DNA from: a virus
DNA: 64,000 nt
Virus record (IMG/VR): IMGVR_UViG_3300047548_000145
Location: 3,204-67,203 of that record
Direction: 5' to 3' (one strand)
The first letter of the stretch is position 1. Every line of letters starts with the position of its first letter. The position numbers and the translations under genes were made by a program. This document shows positions 6,532 through 63,619 of this stretch, one piece after another. The notes beneath the pieces were generated by a model. The model saw only the letters and a list, made by a program, of their open reading frames with translations. It had not been told where the DNA came from and ran no database searches.

Positions 6532-6891
6532 TCAAGGATTCTGTGTTAAATTATCGTTAACATTATCTAGGTATCTTACAGCAACACTTGAAAACTCGTA
6601 GCCTTTCTTCTGATTCTGATGGTGTTGCGTCACATAGTTAGCACACATAAGTTCAAGGTCATCTTCTTTGTATAGTGTCAGGTATAACTTTCTGATCGGA
6701 TCCTTGGAGGCAATGTATCCATCAAGAGAGTCAAGGTCTCCATCCAGTACGTACTCAATACCCTTGTGTTCAAACAGCAGGTTTGCGCTGTAAGAGTCGT
6801 TGAAGATTAGTTCCTTCTTCACCTTGTCTCCGTCAATAAGCATATCTAACTTCGCACGGATGATGTCTCCTTTTAAAACTTCTAGGTTCAT
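6532..6891 (-). CDS. hypothetical protein
   Basis: 119 aa ORF. Confidence 0.65.
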   Translation of the reverse strand: MNLEVLKGDIIRAKLDMLIDGDKVKKELIFNDSYSANLLFEHKGIEYVLDGDLDSLDGYIASKDPIRKLYLTLYKEDDLELMCANYVTQHHQNQKKGYEFSSVAVRYLDNVNDNLTQNP

Positions 6892-11724: not shown

Positions 11725-12058
11725 AGTAATAGTTTAAGACATCTACTATAAGTTCTTCACCAAGTGCTGTCTTTGGATTAATGCTGGTCAGCGTAGTGTT
11801 CTGCAATGTGATGCTGTCGTACATCTCCAAGATTTCGAAGTAGTCAACAGCGGCCACCATAGTCGCTCCGTAGTCGTAGTCGAAGTGCTTGTCGCAGAAG
11901 ATTTCAAGGTCATCCACCGTTTCTACTCCGTACTTAGACCTGTGCCTGTACAGGTACTCGTCAAGGTCTCCGAGGTCGCATTCAATGTATGCTGTCTTCG
12001 GTCTGCTGTAGGTCAACTTGGCCATTAGTTCCCAAGTGCAGCAGTTCGTGGAATACAA
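11708..12058 (-). CDS. acidic hypothetical protein
   Basis: Start may lie at the downstream MAKLTYS. Confidence 0.6.
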   Translation of the reverse strand: MYSTNCCTWELMAKLTYSRPKTAYIECDLGDLDEYLYRHRSKYGVETVDDLEIFCDKHFDYDYGATMVAAVDYFEILEMYDSITLQNTTLTSINPKTALGEELIVDVLNYYFDELL

Positions 12059-12237
12059 AGGGCGTGGACATCGTTGTACTCGTCATTAGAGAAGAATACT
12101 CCATCGTACATATAGCCGTCTCGATTCCAATTGCGTGACGTGAATAGTTCCTGCGTGATATGGTGTACGGCTCTGCGTTTCATATCCTCGCTCAATCCCT
12201 TGGTAACCTTGTTTACTTTTTCTTCGGTGGTAAGCAT
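12025..12237 (-). CDS. hypothetical protein
   Basis: Likely start MLTTEEK at 12237 after an A-rich leader. Confidence 0.5.
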   Translation of the reverse strand: MLTTEEKVNKVTKGLSEDMKRRAVHHITQELFTSRNWNRDGYMYDGVFFSNDEYNDVHALCIPRTAALGN

Positions 12238-12322
12238 AACGTAAATTTTTAAGTTTAGTTTGTTTTCAATTAGTTCAATTATTTCCTCCTGAGTCAGGTG
12301 CTCAAGTATTTTCTCCATTCGG

Positions 12323-12739
12323 TCAAGCGCCCAATACCTGTTCATATACTGACTCTCCGTTACTGAATGAACCTACTTTTACCATCTTCGCCCAAGGCCG
12401 AACAGCCTTGTTGAAGTTCTTTTCTACCCAAGTATCGGCTTCCTCATCCAAGGCAATTTCTTCCTTGCGTGACAGGTAGGCGGAGTCGGTCTCATCCGTG
12501 CGCACGGACAGGGATACAATGCCGCAGTACTCTGCGATGGCGATTTCCACTACTCCGTTTCGGAGGATTACGTTGTTCTCTCCGACCCATTCATCACAGG
12601 TTTCCATATTTGGAAACAGGCCCGTAACGTGTTCCTGAATGTCTTCAATCAGGTAGTCGAACAAGACGTGCTCTTCTTCATCGAATTGGAAGTAGATAAC
12701 AGCCTTTGCATTTGGTAGGTAACTTACTGAACGTCCCAT
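12323..12739 (-). CDS. hypothetical protein
   Basis: 138 aa; MGRSVSY...EYCGIVSLS...GSFSNGESVY. Confidence 0.7.
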   Translation of the reverse strand: MGRSVSYLPNAKAVIYFQFDEEEHVLFDYLIEDIQEHVTGLFPNMETCDEWVGENNVILRNGVVEIAIAEYCGIVSLSVRTDETDSAYLSRKEEIALDEEADTWVEKNFNKAVRPWAKMVKVGSFSNGESVYEQVLGA

Positions 12740-12761
12740 TTTGTTTACTTGTTTTTAATGG

Positions 12762-12950
12762 TTAAACTAATTGGAAGCCGAATGCCTCTTCGAAATCTTT
12801 GCGGCCAAACTCGCCATCCCATTCCTGATACAGGCGCTGTCCTTCTTCAATCCAAGATACGGATACGTTGTACGCTTTTCCTGTCACCTGCAGGTCTACC
12901 TGTACTTGCTTAGCCTCGAACAGGCTTTGGTTAGTGATTTGTGTTTTCAT
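12762..12950 (-). CDS. hypothetical protein
   Basis: Likely start MKTQITNQS at 12950. Confidence 0.55.
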   Translation of the reverse strand: MKTQITNQSLFEAKQVQVDLQVTGKAYNVSVSWIEEGQRLYQEWDGEFGRKDFEEAFGFQLV

Positions 12951-12955
12951 TTTGT

Positions 12956-13138
12956 TTATTTGTTTAATTTGTTTTTTTGTTCGTAAATGATTTCGATTTG
13001 GATGTCCACAAAACAGAGGGACAGGGCAGTGATGATTGCGAGAATAGCCCGTGTGTAGTGCTCGGTCTGCATTGCCTGTACGCCTGCGATAATGATGGCC
13101 ACGATGGCTAAGCGTACGAGGAAGATTGATGTTTTCAT
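12956..13138 (-). CDS. small membrane protein
   Basis: 60 aa, two TM-like segments, downstream of the promoter at 13161. Confidence 0.65.
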   Translation of the reverse strand: MKTSIFLVRLAIVAIIIAGVQAMQTEHYTRAILAIITALSLCFVDIQIEIIYEQKNKLNK

Positions 13139-13160
13139 AGTTTGATTTGTTTTGGATAGT

Positions 13161-13191
13161 CAAATGTAATACTAAATTCTGAACTGACAAA
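13161..13191 (-). promoter_or_regulatory. Bacteroidota sigma-type promoter (-33 TTTG, -7 TACATTTG)
   Basis: Minus strand TTTGTCAGTTCAGAATTTAGTATTACATTTG. Confidence 0.65.
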
Positions 13192-13196
13192 CTTTT

Positions 13197-13376
13197 TTAG
13201 AAATTATTTTCAATGAACTGGATGAGGGACTTTTTTGTACGGAAGTACATAGTGTGTACGTTCGTCTGCAGGTGGTTGCCCTCAAGTAGTGCCCAAGATT
13301 TCAGGTATCTGGCAGGCCATTGTGCGTATGCAAAGTAGAAGGTCTTTCCGTTGTGGGTGATGCTCTGTGCTTTCAT
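13197..13376 (-). CDS. small hypothetical protein (59 aa, not in ORF track)
   Basis: MKAQSITHNGKTFYFAYAQWPARYLKSW...; starts just after hammerhead 1 with the shared ATCGAAATG leader. Confidence 0.6.
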   Translation of the reverse strand: MKAQSITHNGKTFYFAYAQWPARYLKSWALLEGNHLQTNVHTMYFRTKKSLIQFIENNF

Positions 13377-13389
13377 TTCGATCGATTTT

Positions 13390-13441
13390 GGTTAAGACGG
13401 GCTTTCGCCCGTTTCGGATATTCAATCCTCGTCAGTTAACC
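13390..13441 (-). ncRNA. type I hammerhead ribozyme (copy 1)
   Basis: GGTTAA-CTGACGA-GGAT(TGAAT)ATCC-GAAA-CGGGC(GAAA)GCCCG-TC|TTAACC; complete core and three stems. Confidence 0.9.
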
Positions 13442-13588
13442 TTTTAGCATTTTGTTTTTCATTTCTTCGAGCGCCCAAAGTTTGTAGCGCCATAGTGCGG
13501 CAGGGCTCAACTTGTTGGGGACATTAAGGCTGTCCTGCAGGTCTTGGATGGCGGCTATGGTGTCCATCTTTTTTGCTTCGTATTCCAT
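13436..13588 (-). CDS. small hypothetical protein (50 aa, not in ORF track)
   Basis: MEYEAKKMDTIAAIQDLQDSL...; TAA stop lies in hammerhead 1 stem I. Confidence 0.55.
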   Translation of the reverse strand: MEYEAKKMDTIAAIQDLQDSLNVPNKLSPAALWRYKLWALEEMKNKMLKG

Positions 13589-13626
13589 TTTGATAGTGTT
13601 TTTAGTTTTGTTAGTGTATGTTAATA

Positions 13627-13827
13627 TTAGTATTTCTTTTCGGCTGCGTCAAGGAAGGAAATAACGCTAACAGCGAACAGCATCAGGGGGAGGATGCAGA
13701 TAATGGCGATACTTGCAGTGATTTCCCCGCCCATTTCTTGGTGACGGATTGTGGCGTAAAGCATAGCGCCTGACTGAATAGCACAAAGTAGCATCAGGAC
13801 CGCACGGAAGGTTTGCGTGATTTTCAT
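13627..13827 (-). CDS. small membrane protein
   Basis: 66 aa, two TM-like segments, immediately after hammerhead 2. Confidence 0.65.
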   Translation of the reverse strand: MKITQTFRAVLMLLCAIQSGAMLYATIRHQEMGGEITASIAIICILPLMLFAVSVISFLDAAEKKY

Positions 13828-13850
13828 TTCGATTGAATTTAGTGTTTCTT

Positions 13851-13900
13851 GGTTAAGACCCCCGAAGGGGTTTCGGCTACTTAAGCCTCTTCAGTTAACC
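13851..13900 (-). ncRNA. type I hammerhead ribozyme (copy 2)
   Basis: GGTTAA-CTGAAGA-GGCT(TAAGT)AGCC-GAAA-CCCC(TTCG)GGGG-TC|TTAACC. Confidence 0.9.
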
Positions 13901-13912
13901 TGATTTACCGCT

Positions 13913-14296
13913 CTAACCGAATACTATCTCGCTGAAGAACACCTGCTGAAGGATGCAGTCGGCTGTATCTGCGTCATCACGCTCTTCAATCATTTCAAGC
14001 AATTTGTTGACAGGAGTTTGCTGAACTCGCTCGTGAACGTCCTGCAGATTGATGCTGTAACTCTCCTCCGCATCGAGGTCAACTATAGTCAGGCTTTTCC
14101 CGTCTCGCAGAATTTGCATCAGCACGTCCACGTAGCACACATCTGAAGCCTCCTTCACCAACGTAGCATTCGCAGAGGCATAGTCAACAGCCTCGTAAGT
14201 AAGTTGAAGGTCGTAGTAACCCATCTGCGCTAAGCCATTGCACAGGGCGTTGTAGAAGTACATTTCGCTCTCTTGGGGGGTCAATTTGATTTCCAT
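13913..14296 (-). CDS. acidic hypothetical protein
   Basis: 127 aa ending DDADTADCILQQVFFSEIVFG; lies between hammerheads 3 and 2. Confidence 0.75.
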   Translation of the reverse strand: MEIKLTPQESEMYFYNALCNGLAQMGYYDLQLTYEAVDYASANATLVKEASDVCYVDVLMQILRDGKSLTIVDLDAEESYSINLQDVHERVQQTPVNKLLEMIEERDDADTADCILQQVFFSEIVFG

Positions 14297-14318
14297 TTCG
14301 ATTGAATTTTAGGATTTT

Positions 14319-14368
14319 GGTTAAGACCCCCGAAGGGGTTTCGGCTACTTAAGCCTCGTCAGTTAACC
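14319..14368 (-). ncRNA. type I hammerhead ribozyme (copy 3)
   Basis: GGTTAA-CTGACGA-GGCT(TAAGT)AGCC-GAAA-CCCC(TTCG)GGGG-TC|TTAACC; upstream ORF stop lies in stem I. Confidence 0.9.
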
Positions 14369-14596
14369 TTCGATACCACAGCACTTCTTGAGGTCTCCGT
14401 CCTGTATCATTTGTTGGATTACGTCTATGCAATCCTTCTTGCTGCAGCGGGTGTCCATCCATTCGTTGCCGTAGAACAGGTTCCATTCTCCTGAGGGAGC
14501 GCAGTTATCATTCAGGCGCTGACTTACAAACAGAGGCAAGGGAAGACCTTCGATGGAAACTTGGTACTTACCTGCGATTACTTTAGTGACTTTCAT
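14363..14596 (-). CDS. hypothetical protein, first gene of the early operon
   Basis: 77 aa downstream of the promoter at 14632. Confidence 0.7.
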   Translation of the reverse strand: MKVTKVIAGKYQVSIEGLPLPLFVSQRLNDNCAPSGEWNLFYGNEWMDTRCSKKDCIDVIQQMIQDGDLKKCCGIEG

Positions 14597-14631
14597 AACG
14601 TGTAGTGGTTAGTTGTTGTTGTTTGACATTG

Positions 14632-14662
14632 CAAACATACGGCAACAATCTGAATACGCAAG
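14632..14662 (-). promoter_or_regulatory. early Bacteroidota-type promoter (-7 TATGTTTG)
   Basis: Minus strand CTTGCGTATTCAGATTGTTGCCGTATGTTTG. Confidence 0.65.
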
Positions 14663-14808
14663 AAATATTTTTACGGAATATCGCAACTCGCTCATAAACC
14701 CCAACAAAATCAAGGGTTTACAGGTGAAAAAAAGTTTACAGCAGGGCAACAATTGCACAACAGCACAGCAGAAGGTATCCAAAACTGGCCTCTCCAGGAA
14801 CGAGGCTA

Positions 14809-14957
14809 ATGGGGACAAGTGGGACAAGGTGGGAACAAGTGGGGAAGGAAAGGGGAAGAAGTGGGGAAGGGGATATAGGTAATAAGGGGAAGGGGATTGT
14901 CCCTATCCTCCTCCTCTTTCAACTAACTTCCTCCACCTACTTTCCATCCTCCTCCCA
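14809..14957 (+). repeat. purine/G-rich degenerate repeat followed by a pyrimidine-rich tract
   Basis: GGGGACAAGTGGGACAAGGTGGGAACAAGTGGGGAAGG... then CCCTATCCTCCTCCTC...CCTCCTCCC. Confidence 0.7.
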
Positions 14958-15267
14958 ACACACTTCCAAACACAGCAGCAGGTATCCTAAGGTGCTCTCT
15001 ATAGGCTGTCAAAAACGCTGAATTCCCACACGGATTTGGATGCTTGGAAGGGGGGTTGGGTTTGGGATTTCGTTTCGGTATATGGAACCGCACGTGCGTA
15101 AAATATATATTATCCCCTGGATGCGTATAACTCTCTCCCATAAAAGAACGCAGTTCGTGTCGAAGACTCTGTTCCACAAGTCGCATCTTCGATGCTGAGT
15201 GCCATAGGCACGAACTGTACCTTATCACTGAAATGCACGATAGGCTGATTTATCGCCTGAATAGGTG

Positions 15268-15330
15268 ATACCGTACATCATACCGTACATCATACCGCAC
15301 ATCATACCGTACAAGATACCGCACATCATA
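15268..15330 (+). repeat. 12-bp tandem repeat x5 (iteron-like)
   Basis: ATACCG(T/C)ACATC units at 15268, 15280, 15292, 15304 (variant ..ACAAG) and 15316. Confidence 0.85.
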
Positions 15331-15518
15331 TGCGTGTGCATATAAGAATCTGTTCTTAGACTTGTTTATATGCTTGTGCGTATACAGTTCAGGAATCTGT
15401 TGACTTTTGGGAAGTAATTCGGGTATTCCTAGAATTGAATAGGTAAATCTGACATAAAAGCAGACCTCTGGGCGGAGTATACAGCATCCCCATAACCTCC
15501 TTAGTAGTGTCGTCAGTG

Positions 15519-15552
15519 TCGCTTGGCTAGGGGGCTTGGGGGCCCCTGCGCT
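15519..15552. repeat. intergenic GC-rich motif, copy 2 (copy 1 at 6445)
   Basis: TCGCTTGGCTAGGGGGCTTGGGGGCCCCTGCGCT. Confidence 0.65.
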
Positions 15553-15782
15553 GTGCTCTATGCGTGTTTACCAGTGCGATGCAACTGTTAAGCGGGGAAG
15601 CGTGTTGACGTGTTCGGCATCTTACTTACGTCCTATGACGCTGCTAAGGTAAATGAAATAATTGACATTTCCAAATGCGTTTAGACAAAATCTATCACAA
15701 ATGGTATCTTAATAGATTTTATCTATCACCTTATAGAGGACATAGGAACAGCCTATAGTCCCTTACAAGACACAAAAGTGTG

Positions 15783-15790
15783 TATATTTG
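15783..15790 (+). promoter_or_regulatory. -7 promoter element for the plus-strand module
   Basis: TATATTTG 19 nt before ATG 15809; TAnnTTTG also precedes genes at 17522, 22338, 24832, 31665, 32278, 35849, 42501 and 44670. Confidence 0.6.
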
Positions 15791-15808
15791 TATCTCTAAA
15801 GACAAGTT

Positions 15809-16156
15809 ATGAAAGCTGTTAAGAAATATGCTGTAGGTGGTACAGTGCCCAAGAAAGAGAGTTGGGTACAGTCTGGCAGGTCTCCTATGGATCCAAGTAC
15901 CACACAGAAGCAACAGATTACTAACAAGGAGCTTTTAGAGCGTCTCACGCATCAGAAGGCACTAGAGGCACTGAAGAGGTCTGGAGTAGGCACTATCAGC
16001 TCAGACAGCACCAAGGTAGTACGTATGGACGCTTCAGGTAAGACTGAGATCTTAGACAACAACTACGCTAAGACCATCGCACTCGCTAAGGAGAAGGGTT
16101 TATACGATATAGCTAGACAGGAAGCTGTCAAGGATTTTAGAAACAGAAAAGCTTAA
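15809..16156 (+). CDS. hypothetical protein with KKYxxGG motif
   Basis: MKAVKKYAVGG... Confidence 0.7.
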   Translation: MKAVKKYAVGGTVPKKESWVQSGRSPMDPSTTQKQQITNKELLERLTHQKALEALKRSGVGTISSDSTKVVRMDASGKTEILDNNYAKTIALAKEKGLYDIARQEAVKDFRNRKA

Positions 16157-63319: not shown

Positions 63320-63619
63320 TTTAAAAGTTGTCTCTTAAATAAATAGATAATAATAGCCCAGTAATTATTCCAATCAAATAACACCACGCCATCCACAGAA
63401 TGAGTTCGGCTTTTGGTTTGTCATTTTCCATAAAATGTTATTAAAATTCAAATGCGAGTGAGAGAGAGAGTTTCCCCGCCTCATCGCCTGTTAGCTTTTT
63501 TTGAAACCAATTACCTGACCATCCCTTACATATAGATATTTAGTCCCAGAGGACTTAGCTCCGTTTAAAATGCAAAAGAAAAGATAAAGTTGGCTTTGGT
63601 CAATTAACCTTGAGTTCAT

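Follow-up and report, generated by a model that had tools for sequence, protein, structure and literature searches.

Type I hammerhead ribozymes at gene junctions of a phage operon: three clean examples and their probable role in processing polycistronic RNA

Why would a phage place several self-cleaving ribozymes between consecutive small genes of one transcription unit? This question is raised by a 64-kb stretch of DNA (termed here the window), which comprises bases 3204-67203 of the 67,203-base IMG/VR virus record IMGVR_UViG_3300047548_000145, a record rated 100% complete. Three complete, canonical type I hammerhead ribozymes lie there on the messenger RNA (mRNA) strand, at junctions between minus-strand open reading frames (ORFs). 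From the observed motif, its statistical significance, its covariation among relatives and its placement, it is inferred here, with a probability of roughly 0.72, that these hammerheads cut the nascent polycistronic RNA at the three junctions and thereby divide it into gene-length pieces.

The three hammerheads and the junctions that they occupy

Both strands of the window were searched with a type I descriptor constructed for this analysis, which specifies a CUGANGA core, a stem II hairpin, GAA and a stem III hairpin closed by an A-U pair, and which further demands that the cleavage nucleotide be other than G and that stem I have 4 or more base pairs (bp). It returns exactly three matches, all on the minus strand: 14368-14319, 13900-13851 and 13441-13390, which are termed here copies 3, 2 and 1, respectively, copy 3 being the first and copy 1 the third in the transcript. 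These are the same three elements, at the same positions, that an earlier note on this DNA had picked out by reading the sequence. Within 200 first-order Markov random windows the descriptor found two matches in total and at most one per window, which corresponds to a chance expectation of about 0.01 per window. When the core pattern was sought across the whole 67,203-base record, the same three sites were recovered, all on the reverse strand, and no others.

Read from 5' to 3', each element (50 nucleotides (nt) for copies 3 and 2, 52 nt for copy 1) starts with GGUUAA and CUGA(C/A)GA; a hairpin of 4 bp and a 5-nt loop follows, then GAA, then a second hairpin, of 5-6 bp, whose first base is A and whose last is U, and the element ends with C and UUAACC. 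Because stem I is open, stems II and III are closed and the cut falls after the C behind stem III, the topology is that of type I. Stem I (GGUUAA/UUAACC, 6 bp) and the cleavage triplet GUC are common to all three copies; stem II has 4 bp and stem III 5-6 bp, and the pairs 10.1-11.1 and 1.1-2.1 are G-C and U-A. All three copies likewise carry every core feature listed in the available text of Perreault et al. (2011; PMC3088659)--that is, C3 U4 G5 A6 N7 G8 A9, G12 A13 A14, the A15.1-U16.1 pair and a non-G nucleotide at H17--so that the intact core and shared stem I described earlier hold for each of them.

Copy 3 has the core CUGACGA, stem II GGCU-UAAGU-AGCC and stem III ACCCC-UUCG-GGGGU, and copy 2 differs from it at a single position, N7 (A in copy 2, C in copy 3). 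Copy 1 has stem II GGAU-UGAAU-AUCC and stem III ACGGGC-GAAA-GCCCGU. Relative to copies 2 and 3, its stem II (GGAU/AUCC rather than GGCU/AGCC) replaces the third pair, C-G, by A-U, and its stem III (ACGGGC/GCCCGU rather than ACCCC/GGGGU) is wholly different; both helices are fully paired in all copies, so that the differences are compensatory, as had been claimed. The lengths of the parts put the predicted cuts after the C at 14325, 13857 and 13396 (14325/14324, 13857/13856 and 13396/13395, as earlier proposed).

A covariance model (termed here R1) scores copies 3, 2 and 1 at 72.5 bits (E 2.3e-15), 69.8 bits and 77.1 bits, values that are high partly by construction, since the 60 subfamily seed sequences from which R1 was built include these three. 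Run over the window with its filters off, R1 finds no further or degenerate copy, the next match scoring 12.2 bits (E 1.8). That match, at 63596-63611 on the minus strand, is made up of no more than the strands of stem I, with the A that flanks each, placed back to back, with no ribozyme body, and probably arose by chance. Nor is there a population of substrate-only half sites: the 10-mer across the cut site occurs, with one mismatch allowed, at 8 sites in the window versus 5.3 expected, and exactly only at the three known ones. A reading of the copies as intrinsic terminators was considered and rejected: no minus-strand terminator-like site occurs at any copy, and no run of U follows stem III.

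ORF tables agree that the copies stand on the mRNA strand between genes. The first gene of the operon, ORF77 (14363..14596, minus strand, as are all the genes that follow here; 77 amino acids (aa), no family match), ends Gly-stop, both codons being supplied by the GGU UAA of copy 3 stem I (stop at 14365-14363). ORF127 (13913..14296), a viral hypothetical protein, lies between copies 3 and 2; it starts 28 nt after the copy 3 cut and its stop, at 13915-13913, precedes copy 2 by 13 nt. ORF66 (13627..13827) starts 29 nt after the copy 2 cut and is followed, with no hammerhead between them, by ORF50 (13436..13588; 50 aa), which again ends Gly-stop within a stem I, that of copy 1 (UAA at 13438-13436). 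Beyond copy 1, ORF59 (13197..13376), which begins MKAQSITHNG and is conserved in two relatives (L067 and L035), starts 19 nt after the cut. The three copies, which span 979 nt, therefore flank ORF127 and the pair ORF66 and ORF50. The earlier statements that the upstream stop is the UAA of stem I in copies 1 and 3, and that each cut leaves a short A-rich leader with a common ending, are borne out: the leaders from cut to AUG (28, 29 and 19 nt for copies 3, 2 and 1) all end in AUCGAAAUG, a 9-mer found four times in the window versus 0.44 expected, its fourth occurrence being inside a gene.

Conservation among phages and the setting of the operon

Related hammerheads were sampled from viral contigs with two patterns, and all counts from these samples, here and below, are among the matches listed. 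The first pattern fixes only the 5' half of the element (UUAA, the core, two stem II pairs and GAAAC) and occurs in at least 119 stretches of viral contigs. As a test of completeness it is not circular: of its 121 distinct matches, 116 form a complete type I hammerhead, and three of the other five, inspected by eye, depart from one only in having a longer stem III. Within these loci the descriptor identifies 184 hammerheads, distributed over 116 of the 119, with 2 to 6 in each of 41 loci. The second pattern leaves stem I free and occurs in at least 119 viral contigs, with 93 distinct matches in 91 new loci, 89 of the 93 being complete.

This stem-I-free sample contains dozens of stem I sequences, and yet stem I is exactly 6 bp long in 89/89; an A lies 5' of it in 88/89 and 3' of it in 89/89, and its distal pair carries a G in 88/93. 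In the sample from the first pattern, loop II conforms to U-N-A-N-U (U5 in 140/140, A7 in 131/140 and U9 in 120/140). GGUUAA is thus the most frequent stem I in a structural subfamily that is well defined, without being universal there. Among bacterial and archaeal genomes this variant is rare: 21 stretches were found among 185,579 species, about half of them Bacteroidota-type going by their titles.

Compensatory change among relatives strongly supports the helices. Across 60 aligned members, 13 of the 16 base pairs vary on both sides. The alignment contains 179 pair-change cells, as compared with 37.7 in shuffles (none of 500 reaching 179) and with 16-45 when the partner column is slid; the covariation score is 0.554 versus 0.112 in shuffles. 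The aligned rows were picked by a descriptor that demands pairing, which makes the percentage of paired positions circular, but not the diversity of pair types.

The placement recurs as well. A survey of related phages for hammerheads at gene junctions, one of the checks proposed earlier, finds an ORF of at least 30 aa within 80 nt downstream in 167 of the 173 evaluable members; the median leader from cut to start codon is 23 nt (151 leaders measure 15-35 nt), and the median downstream ORF is 78 aa. In the relatives, the ribozyme-made leaders and the primary leader end in the same bases before the AUG. Within one phage (L033, L079, L049 and L038, for example) post-cut leaders are near-identical from copy to copy. 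Because some leaders carry a Shine-Dalgarno-like AGGAG or GGGG and others carry none, the subfamily spans phages of hosts that differ in how translation starts. One contig with three type I hammerheads of the subfamily (L086) also has, at 6669-6747, a type-P3 twister ribozyme (RF03154, 40.3 bits, the gathering score being 39.9); different ribozyme classes are known to occur together in phage DNA, and this contig agrees with that.

Two relatives permit a direct comparison. L067 and L035 share with the window phage the promoter region and, beginning at ORF59, the genes that follow (tblastx segments of 56-85% identity), and between these conserved flanks lie unrelated small ORFs together with three hammerheads in the window, four in L067 and one in L035. 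In all three genomes a hammerhead follows the first gene, which ends Gly-stop. The L067 hammerhead before ORF59 has the same stem II as the one at the copy 1 junction and a compensatory stem III (ACCUGC/GCAGGU). At 4157-4180 of L035, the gene after the single hammerhead ends Gly-stop in GGTTAAC, and TTAAACCAAAA follows a few bases later with no ribozyme body between; this looks like both stem I strands minus the core, either a deletion scar or a chance resemblance. The possibility that a gene cassette carries its own ribozyme was considered and is not supported: in 3/3 other phage contigs no hammerhead lies within 2.5 kb of the ORF127 homologue, so that the genes do not appear to travel with the ribozyme.

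The record is that of a tailed phage, with matches to a large terminase, a portal, tail proteins, a ribonucleotide reductase and a primase-helicase. Its hammerheads stand at the promoter-proximal start of a minus-strand block of many tiny ORFs without family matches, a block that later reaches an Erf-like annealing protein, exonucleases and an endolysin-like gene and that is preceded by about 1.2 kb of non-coding DNA with tandem repeats. Searches of PHROGs and Pfam gave nothing usable for ORF77, ORF127, ORF66, ORF50 or ORF59, the sole matches being phrog_2355 (E 1.8e-4, to the last 24 residues of ORF127) and PF03403 (below the cut-off); a protein atlas returned only viral hypothetical clusters for ORF127, and megablast of positions 12000-16000 against the phages in GenBank found no close relative. 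A search for RNA sequencing runs on 12800-14800 likewise listed none.

The earlier note had described this as the first early operon, transcribed from a promoter at 14632. Upstream of ORF77 there is indeed a conserved non-coding region (14597..14790, minus strand), presumed to hold the promoter and the primary leader: the 190 nt before the first gene show 83% mean column identity with L067 and L035, and within them lies a TAnnTTTG box at 14639-14632. We take this box to be a -7 element of the Bacteroidota type. A scan for sigma-70 promoters was uninformative (12 sites versus 11.2 expected). A first early operon with its own promoter is thus plausible, the conserved box standing as described, while 'early' and 'promoter' are both still readings of it.

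Two repeat tracts lie further upstream. At 14810-14968, upstream of the presumed promoter, purine-rich repeats of 10-11 nt (units such as GGGACAAGT and GGGAAGAAGTG, plus strand) are followed by their pyrimidine-rich complement; together they form a long imperfect hairpin, to which Rfam gives weak microRNA-precursor matches (E 0.012 and worse, far below gathering). At 15268-15330, in the non-coding region of about 1.2 kb between the divergent gene blocks, a 12-nt unit, ATACCGTACATC (plus strand), is repeated in tandem 5.2 times with 86% matches, and may be an origin or the site of a regulator.

What the ribozymes may do

On the explanation favored here, each hammerhead would fold as the RNA emerges and would cut itself after the C of GUC. 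Given the type I topology, nearly the entire ribozyme would remain on the upstream fragment, which would keep its stop codon and acquire, at its 3' end, structure and a 2',3'-cyclic phosphate. A 5'-hydroxyl (5'-OH) would open the downstream fragment, followed by UUAACC and, up to the AUG, by a short leader, 19-29 nt long, A-rich and unstructured. The polycistronic RNA would in this way be converted into about three separate pieces plus a remainder. Such a downstream leader resembles that of the primary transcript in length and make-up, and translation and decay of each gene could thereby become independent of its neighbors. Cleavage in vivo, an effect on translation or decay, and early timing are all read from sequence and are to be taken conditionally. 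That a phage might process its own mRNA in this manner, as the earlier note suggested, agrees with the hypothesis accepted for such clusters (PMC3088659); the novelty that the note implied does not stand, both the arrangement and the idea having been published.

Several observations weigh against this explanation. First, the operon is not punctuated throughout, as had been supposed: according to R1, the ORF66/ORF50 junction and every later junction lack a hammerhead, leaving one of the first four junctions bare, and in L035 the orthologous ORF59 junction has none. Because of these bare junctions, the ribozymes would be dispensable at any given one; they appear to be conserved as a device and yet not needed at any particular place.

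Second, predicted folding is uneven. Single copies, taken alone, fold to the hammerhead or nearly so (-16.2 to -17.1 kcal/mol), and with 20-nt flanks the minimum-free-energy structure of copy 1 is the hammerhead fold (z -2.64). With the same flanks, however, stem I of copy 3 is not cleanly formed, although its stems II and III are, and its fold is no stabler than shuffles (z 0.08); copy 2 has a rival fold with the end of ORF127 that is stabler by 6.3 kcal/mol (-24.0 versus -17.7 kcal/mol). These are thermodynamic predictions for naked RNA and decide nothing; on this modelling, copy 2 would be the likeliest of the three to rely on folding during transcription or on the traffic of ribosomes.

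Third, the check by Rfam hammerhead models that had been proposed fails: Rfam 15 gives no match in the window at gathering score, and no hammerhead model reaches that score on these copies. Under relaxed thresholds only RAGATH-1-hammerhead (RF03152) responds, with 18.9 and 18.6 bits versus a gathering score of 56.3, and only for copies 3 and 2. Applied to 15 related loci holding 50 descriptor hammerheads, Rfam likewise reported no hammerhead, but only one twister-P3 and one DUF805b RNA; because these 50 were equally missed, the absent calls reflect the coverage of the models, not the motif.

Fourth, the signs of a tertiary contact between stem I and loop II are drawn entirely from conservation: such a contact would fit the constant 6 bp of stem I, its A/A cap and distal G-C pair, and the bases of loop II.

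The alternative that survives best overlaps the favored explanation and differs in emphasis: the ribozymes would cut, but chiefly so as to set the RNA ends that control stability, with insulation of translation secondary. A hairpin-rich 3' end with a cyclic phosphate would protect the upstream cistron, and a 5'-OH would shield the downstream cistron from decay that depends on the 5' end. With type I topology the upstream fragment does terminate, on its 3' side, in stems II and III, and a 2019 review (PMC6765202), in its available text, says that processing could give transcripts of differing stability or translation efficiency. On the other hand, the fixed short distance to the start codon (the median of 23 nt) points at least equally to the downstream 5' leader, and nothing in the present data separates a use in stability from one in insulation. 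Primacy of stability is accordingly held here as possible, at well under even odds.

An appreciably less likely alternative ties cleavage to upstream translation: a ribosome terminating at a stop codon inside the ribozyme would keep the 5' half unfolded, and cutting would occur only before the first ribosome arrives or after its release. A coupling of folding to ribosome termination had been suggested in the earlier note from the stop embedded in stem I, which two of the three copies here use. The positions of upstream stops were therefore tabulated for the GGUUAA-type sample (n=168) and the stem-I-free sample (n=93). In the former, 55 upstream ORFs have their stop at the UAA of stem I and 25 at the UGA of the core, while 14 end deeper in the ribozyme, 50 up to 15 nt upstream and 14 further upstream, no upstream ORF being found for 10; other positions within stem I do not form a separate class there. 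The corresponding numbers for the stem-I-free sample are 7 at the last stem I triplet, 5 elsewhere within stem I, 20 at the core UGA, 15 deeper, 36 up to 15 nt upstream and 9 further upstream, with no upstream ORF for one.

Thus 94 of the 168 upstream ORFs in the GGUUAA-type sample end inside the ribozyme, and the UAA frame is over-represented (chi-square p 6e-7 overall and p 0.004 with one per locus). Yet the ribozyme has stops in all three frames, and tight gene packing alone would yield such overlaps; the preference for the UAA frame is equally explained by its adding the smallest C-terminal extension, one Gly. Where stem I is free, just 7/92 upstream ORFs stop at its last triplet, though 33/93 ribozymes have a stop triplet there, and 36/92 stop up to 15 nt upstream, as does ORF127, 13 nt before copy 2; the L035 junction orthologous to that of copy 1 has no ribozyme at all. 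The stem I stop thus recurs in the subfamily and is not universal; for that reason, termination-coupled folding remains speculation.

It is again unlikely, and slightly more so, that the ribozyme-plus-leader modules serve mainly as repeated joints for recombinational exchange of accessory genes, with RNA activity secondary or a relic. Several features would suit such joints: the window, L067 and L035 combine common flanks (the promoter, and ORF59 onwards) with unrelated ORFs and 3, 4 and 1 hammerheads between them; stems II and III occur in mixed combinations among copies; copies 2 and 3 are one base apart (N7); variable parts resemble each other more when they come from one locus than from different loci (0.52 versus 0.40); and the phage encodes an Erf-like annealing protein and exonucleases. 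However, 13 core nucleotides and three helices are kept throughout the family with abundant compensatory change, which only selection at the RNA level explains, and the three contigs with ORF127 homologues show the gene apart from any ribozyme, as does L015, where the nearest hammerhead is about 1.5 kb off.

Improbable, too, is the notion that the motifs are minimal hammerheads which lack a working tertiary contact, cut too slowly to matter in a cell and persist as neutral passengers. Stem I has just 6 bp and no internal loop, the Rfam model scores are low and, by eye, no pseudoknot partner for loop II is seen in the flanks. Against this, a specific contact between stem I and loop II would be expected to leave just the trace that is seen, a stem I that never varies in length and has an A/A cap and a distal G-C pair, together with a loop II whose bases are conserved, and neutral passengers would not keep an intact core in 89/93 and 116/121 sampled sites.

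Most improbable is that the phage makes circular single-gene mRNAs, by the reverse reaction or by a host RtcB-type ligase sealing the nick: because all copies share one stem I, the ends of the predicted 468-nt and 461-nt fragments released by successive cuts (UUAACC at the start; GGUUAA, the ribozyme body and a cyclic phosphate at the end) could re-form a complete nicked hammerhead, and 19/36 adjacent hammerhead pairs in the stem-I-free sample have compatible ends though stem I differs widely between genomes, but the other 17/36 are incompatible, and a stem I shared within a genome is also expected from duplication of the ribozyme-plus-leader module.

Relation to known ribozymes and processing systems

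The locus itself opens no new question. It adds a clean, canonical, three-copy example to a class whose biological role was called unproven in the available text of the 2019 review (PMC6765202). The wider survey is more useful than the single locus, inasmuch as it defines a very common phage subfamily, marked by a 6-bp stem I, an A/A cap, a distal G-C pair, a loop II of the form U-N-A-N-U and a cut site some 23 nt ahead of the AUG of a small gene. Because its members do not reach Rfam 15 gathering scores, standard annotation misses this subfamily. Three closely related phages, moreover, differ in copy number (3, 4 and 1) while sharing the conserved promoter and the genes downstream, and they offer a natural comparison for the effect of a ribozyme on the expression of its neighbors. 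Among Rfam families, the RAGATH-1 hammerhead (RF03152) is similar in its type I topology, its short A/U-rich stem I, its short stem II and its GUC cut; it differs in an upstream hairpin of its model that is not convincingly present here (the alignment leaves one position unpaired and contains an insertion of 33 nt).

Two better-known devices are alike in principle. The early mRNA of phage T7 contains RNase III sites, which are cut by a host protein enzyme, and RiboJ is an engineered insulator derived from a type III hammerhead, which stays on the downstream RNA. In both, as is proposed here, cuts between cistrons give each gene a defined 5' end; the present ribozymes differ in being natural, of type I, and retained on the upstream RNA. 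Hammerheads of the human microbiome were reportedly also described by Jimenez et al. in 2011, in the Journal of Biological Chemistry (JBC).

Among viruses with RNA genomes, López-Galiano et al. (2026; Nucleic Acids Research (NAR), PMC13725137) describe, in the available text, RNA viruses of fungi and plants with type I hammerheads that lie a few nt ahead of ORFs, confirm the 5' ends in vivo and propose a role like that of an internal ribosome entry site (IRES); hits in DNA bacteriophages were set aside there as already described. As in the window, those ribozymes are of type I, lie in an intergenic untranslated region and cut a few nt before a start codon (7 nt in one fusarivirus). Unlike the window, their hosts are eukaryotic RNA viruses, and according to the authors the usual loop-loop contacts are lacking. 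The portions available of the literature on type I hammerheads in phages do not describe an overlap with stop codons, and those of the crAss-type phage literature contain nothing relevant.

The closest precedent is that of Perreault et al. (2011; PLoS Comput Biol, PMC3088659). As far as its available text goes, multiple hammerheads flank single genes or short blocks in prophages and phages, and three tandem arrangements in prophage-type contexts, whose sources were Clostridium scindens, Azorhizobium caulinodans and Agrobacterium tumefaciens, underwent the expected cleavage while being transcribed in vitro; circular or spliced products were sought and none was seen. The term 'stop codon' does not appear in its main text, whereas its supplementary alignments may include the present subfamily. 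The proposal made there was that long phage transcripts are processed to gene-length mRNAs, and Weinberg et al. (2019; PMC6765202), in the text available, add that the products could differ in stability or translation efficiency, the purpose being undefined.

The window belongs with these clusters: at least two hammerheads lie on the coding strand of one phage gene block and flank single genes or short blocks. Like the clusters of PMC3088659, so far as its available text describes them, it has several complete, canonical-core hammerheads within one phage transcription unit, between small genes of changing identity. Unlike the tandem sets tested there, all three of its hammerheads are of type I and of one subfamily, and they occur in an uncultured phage of lytic type with Bacteroidota-style signals. 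Clustered phage hammerheads, and the idea that they process mRNA, have been in print since 2011, and this locus is a clean further example of them.

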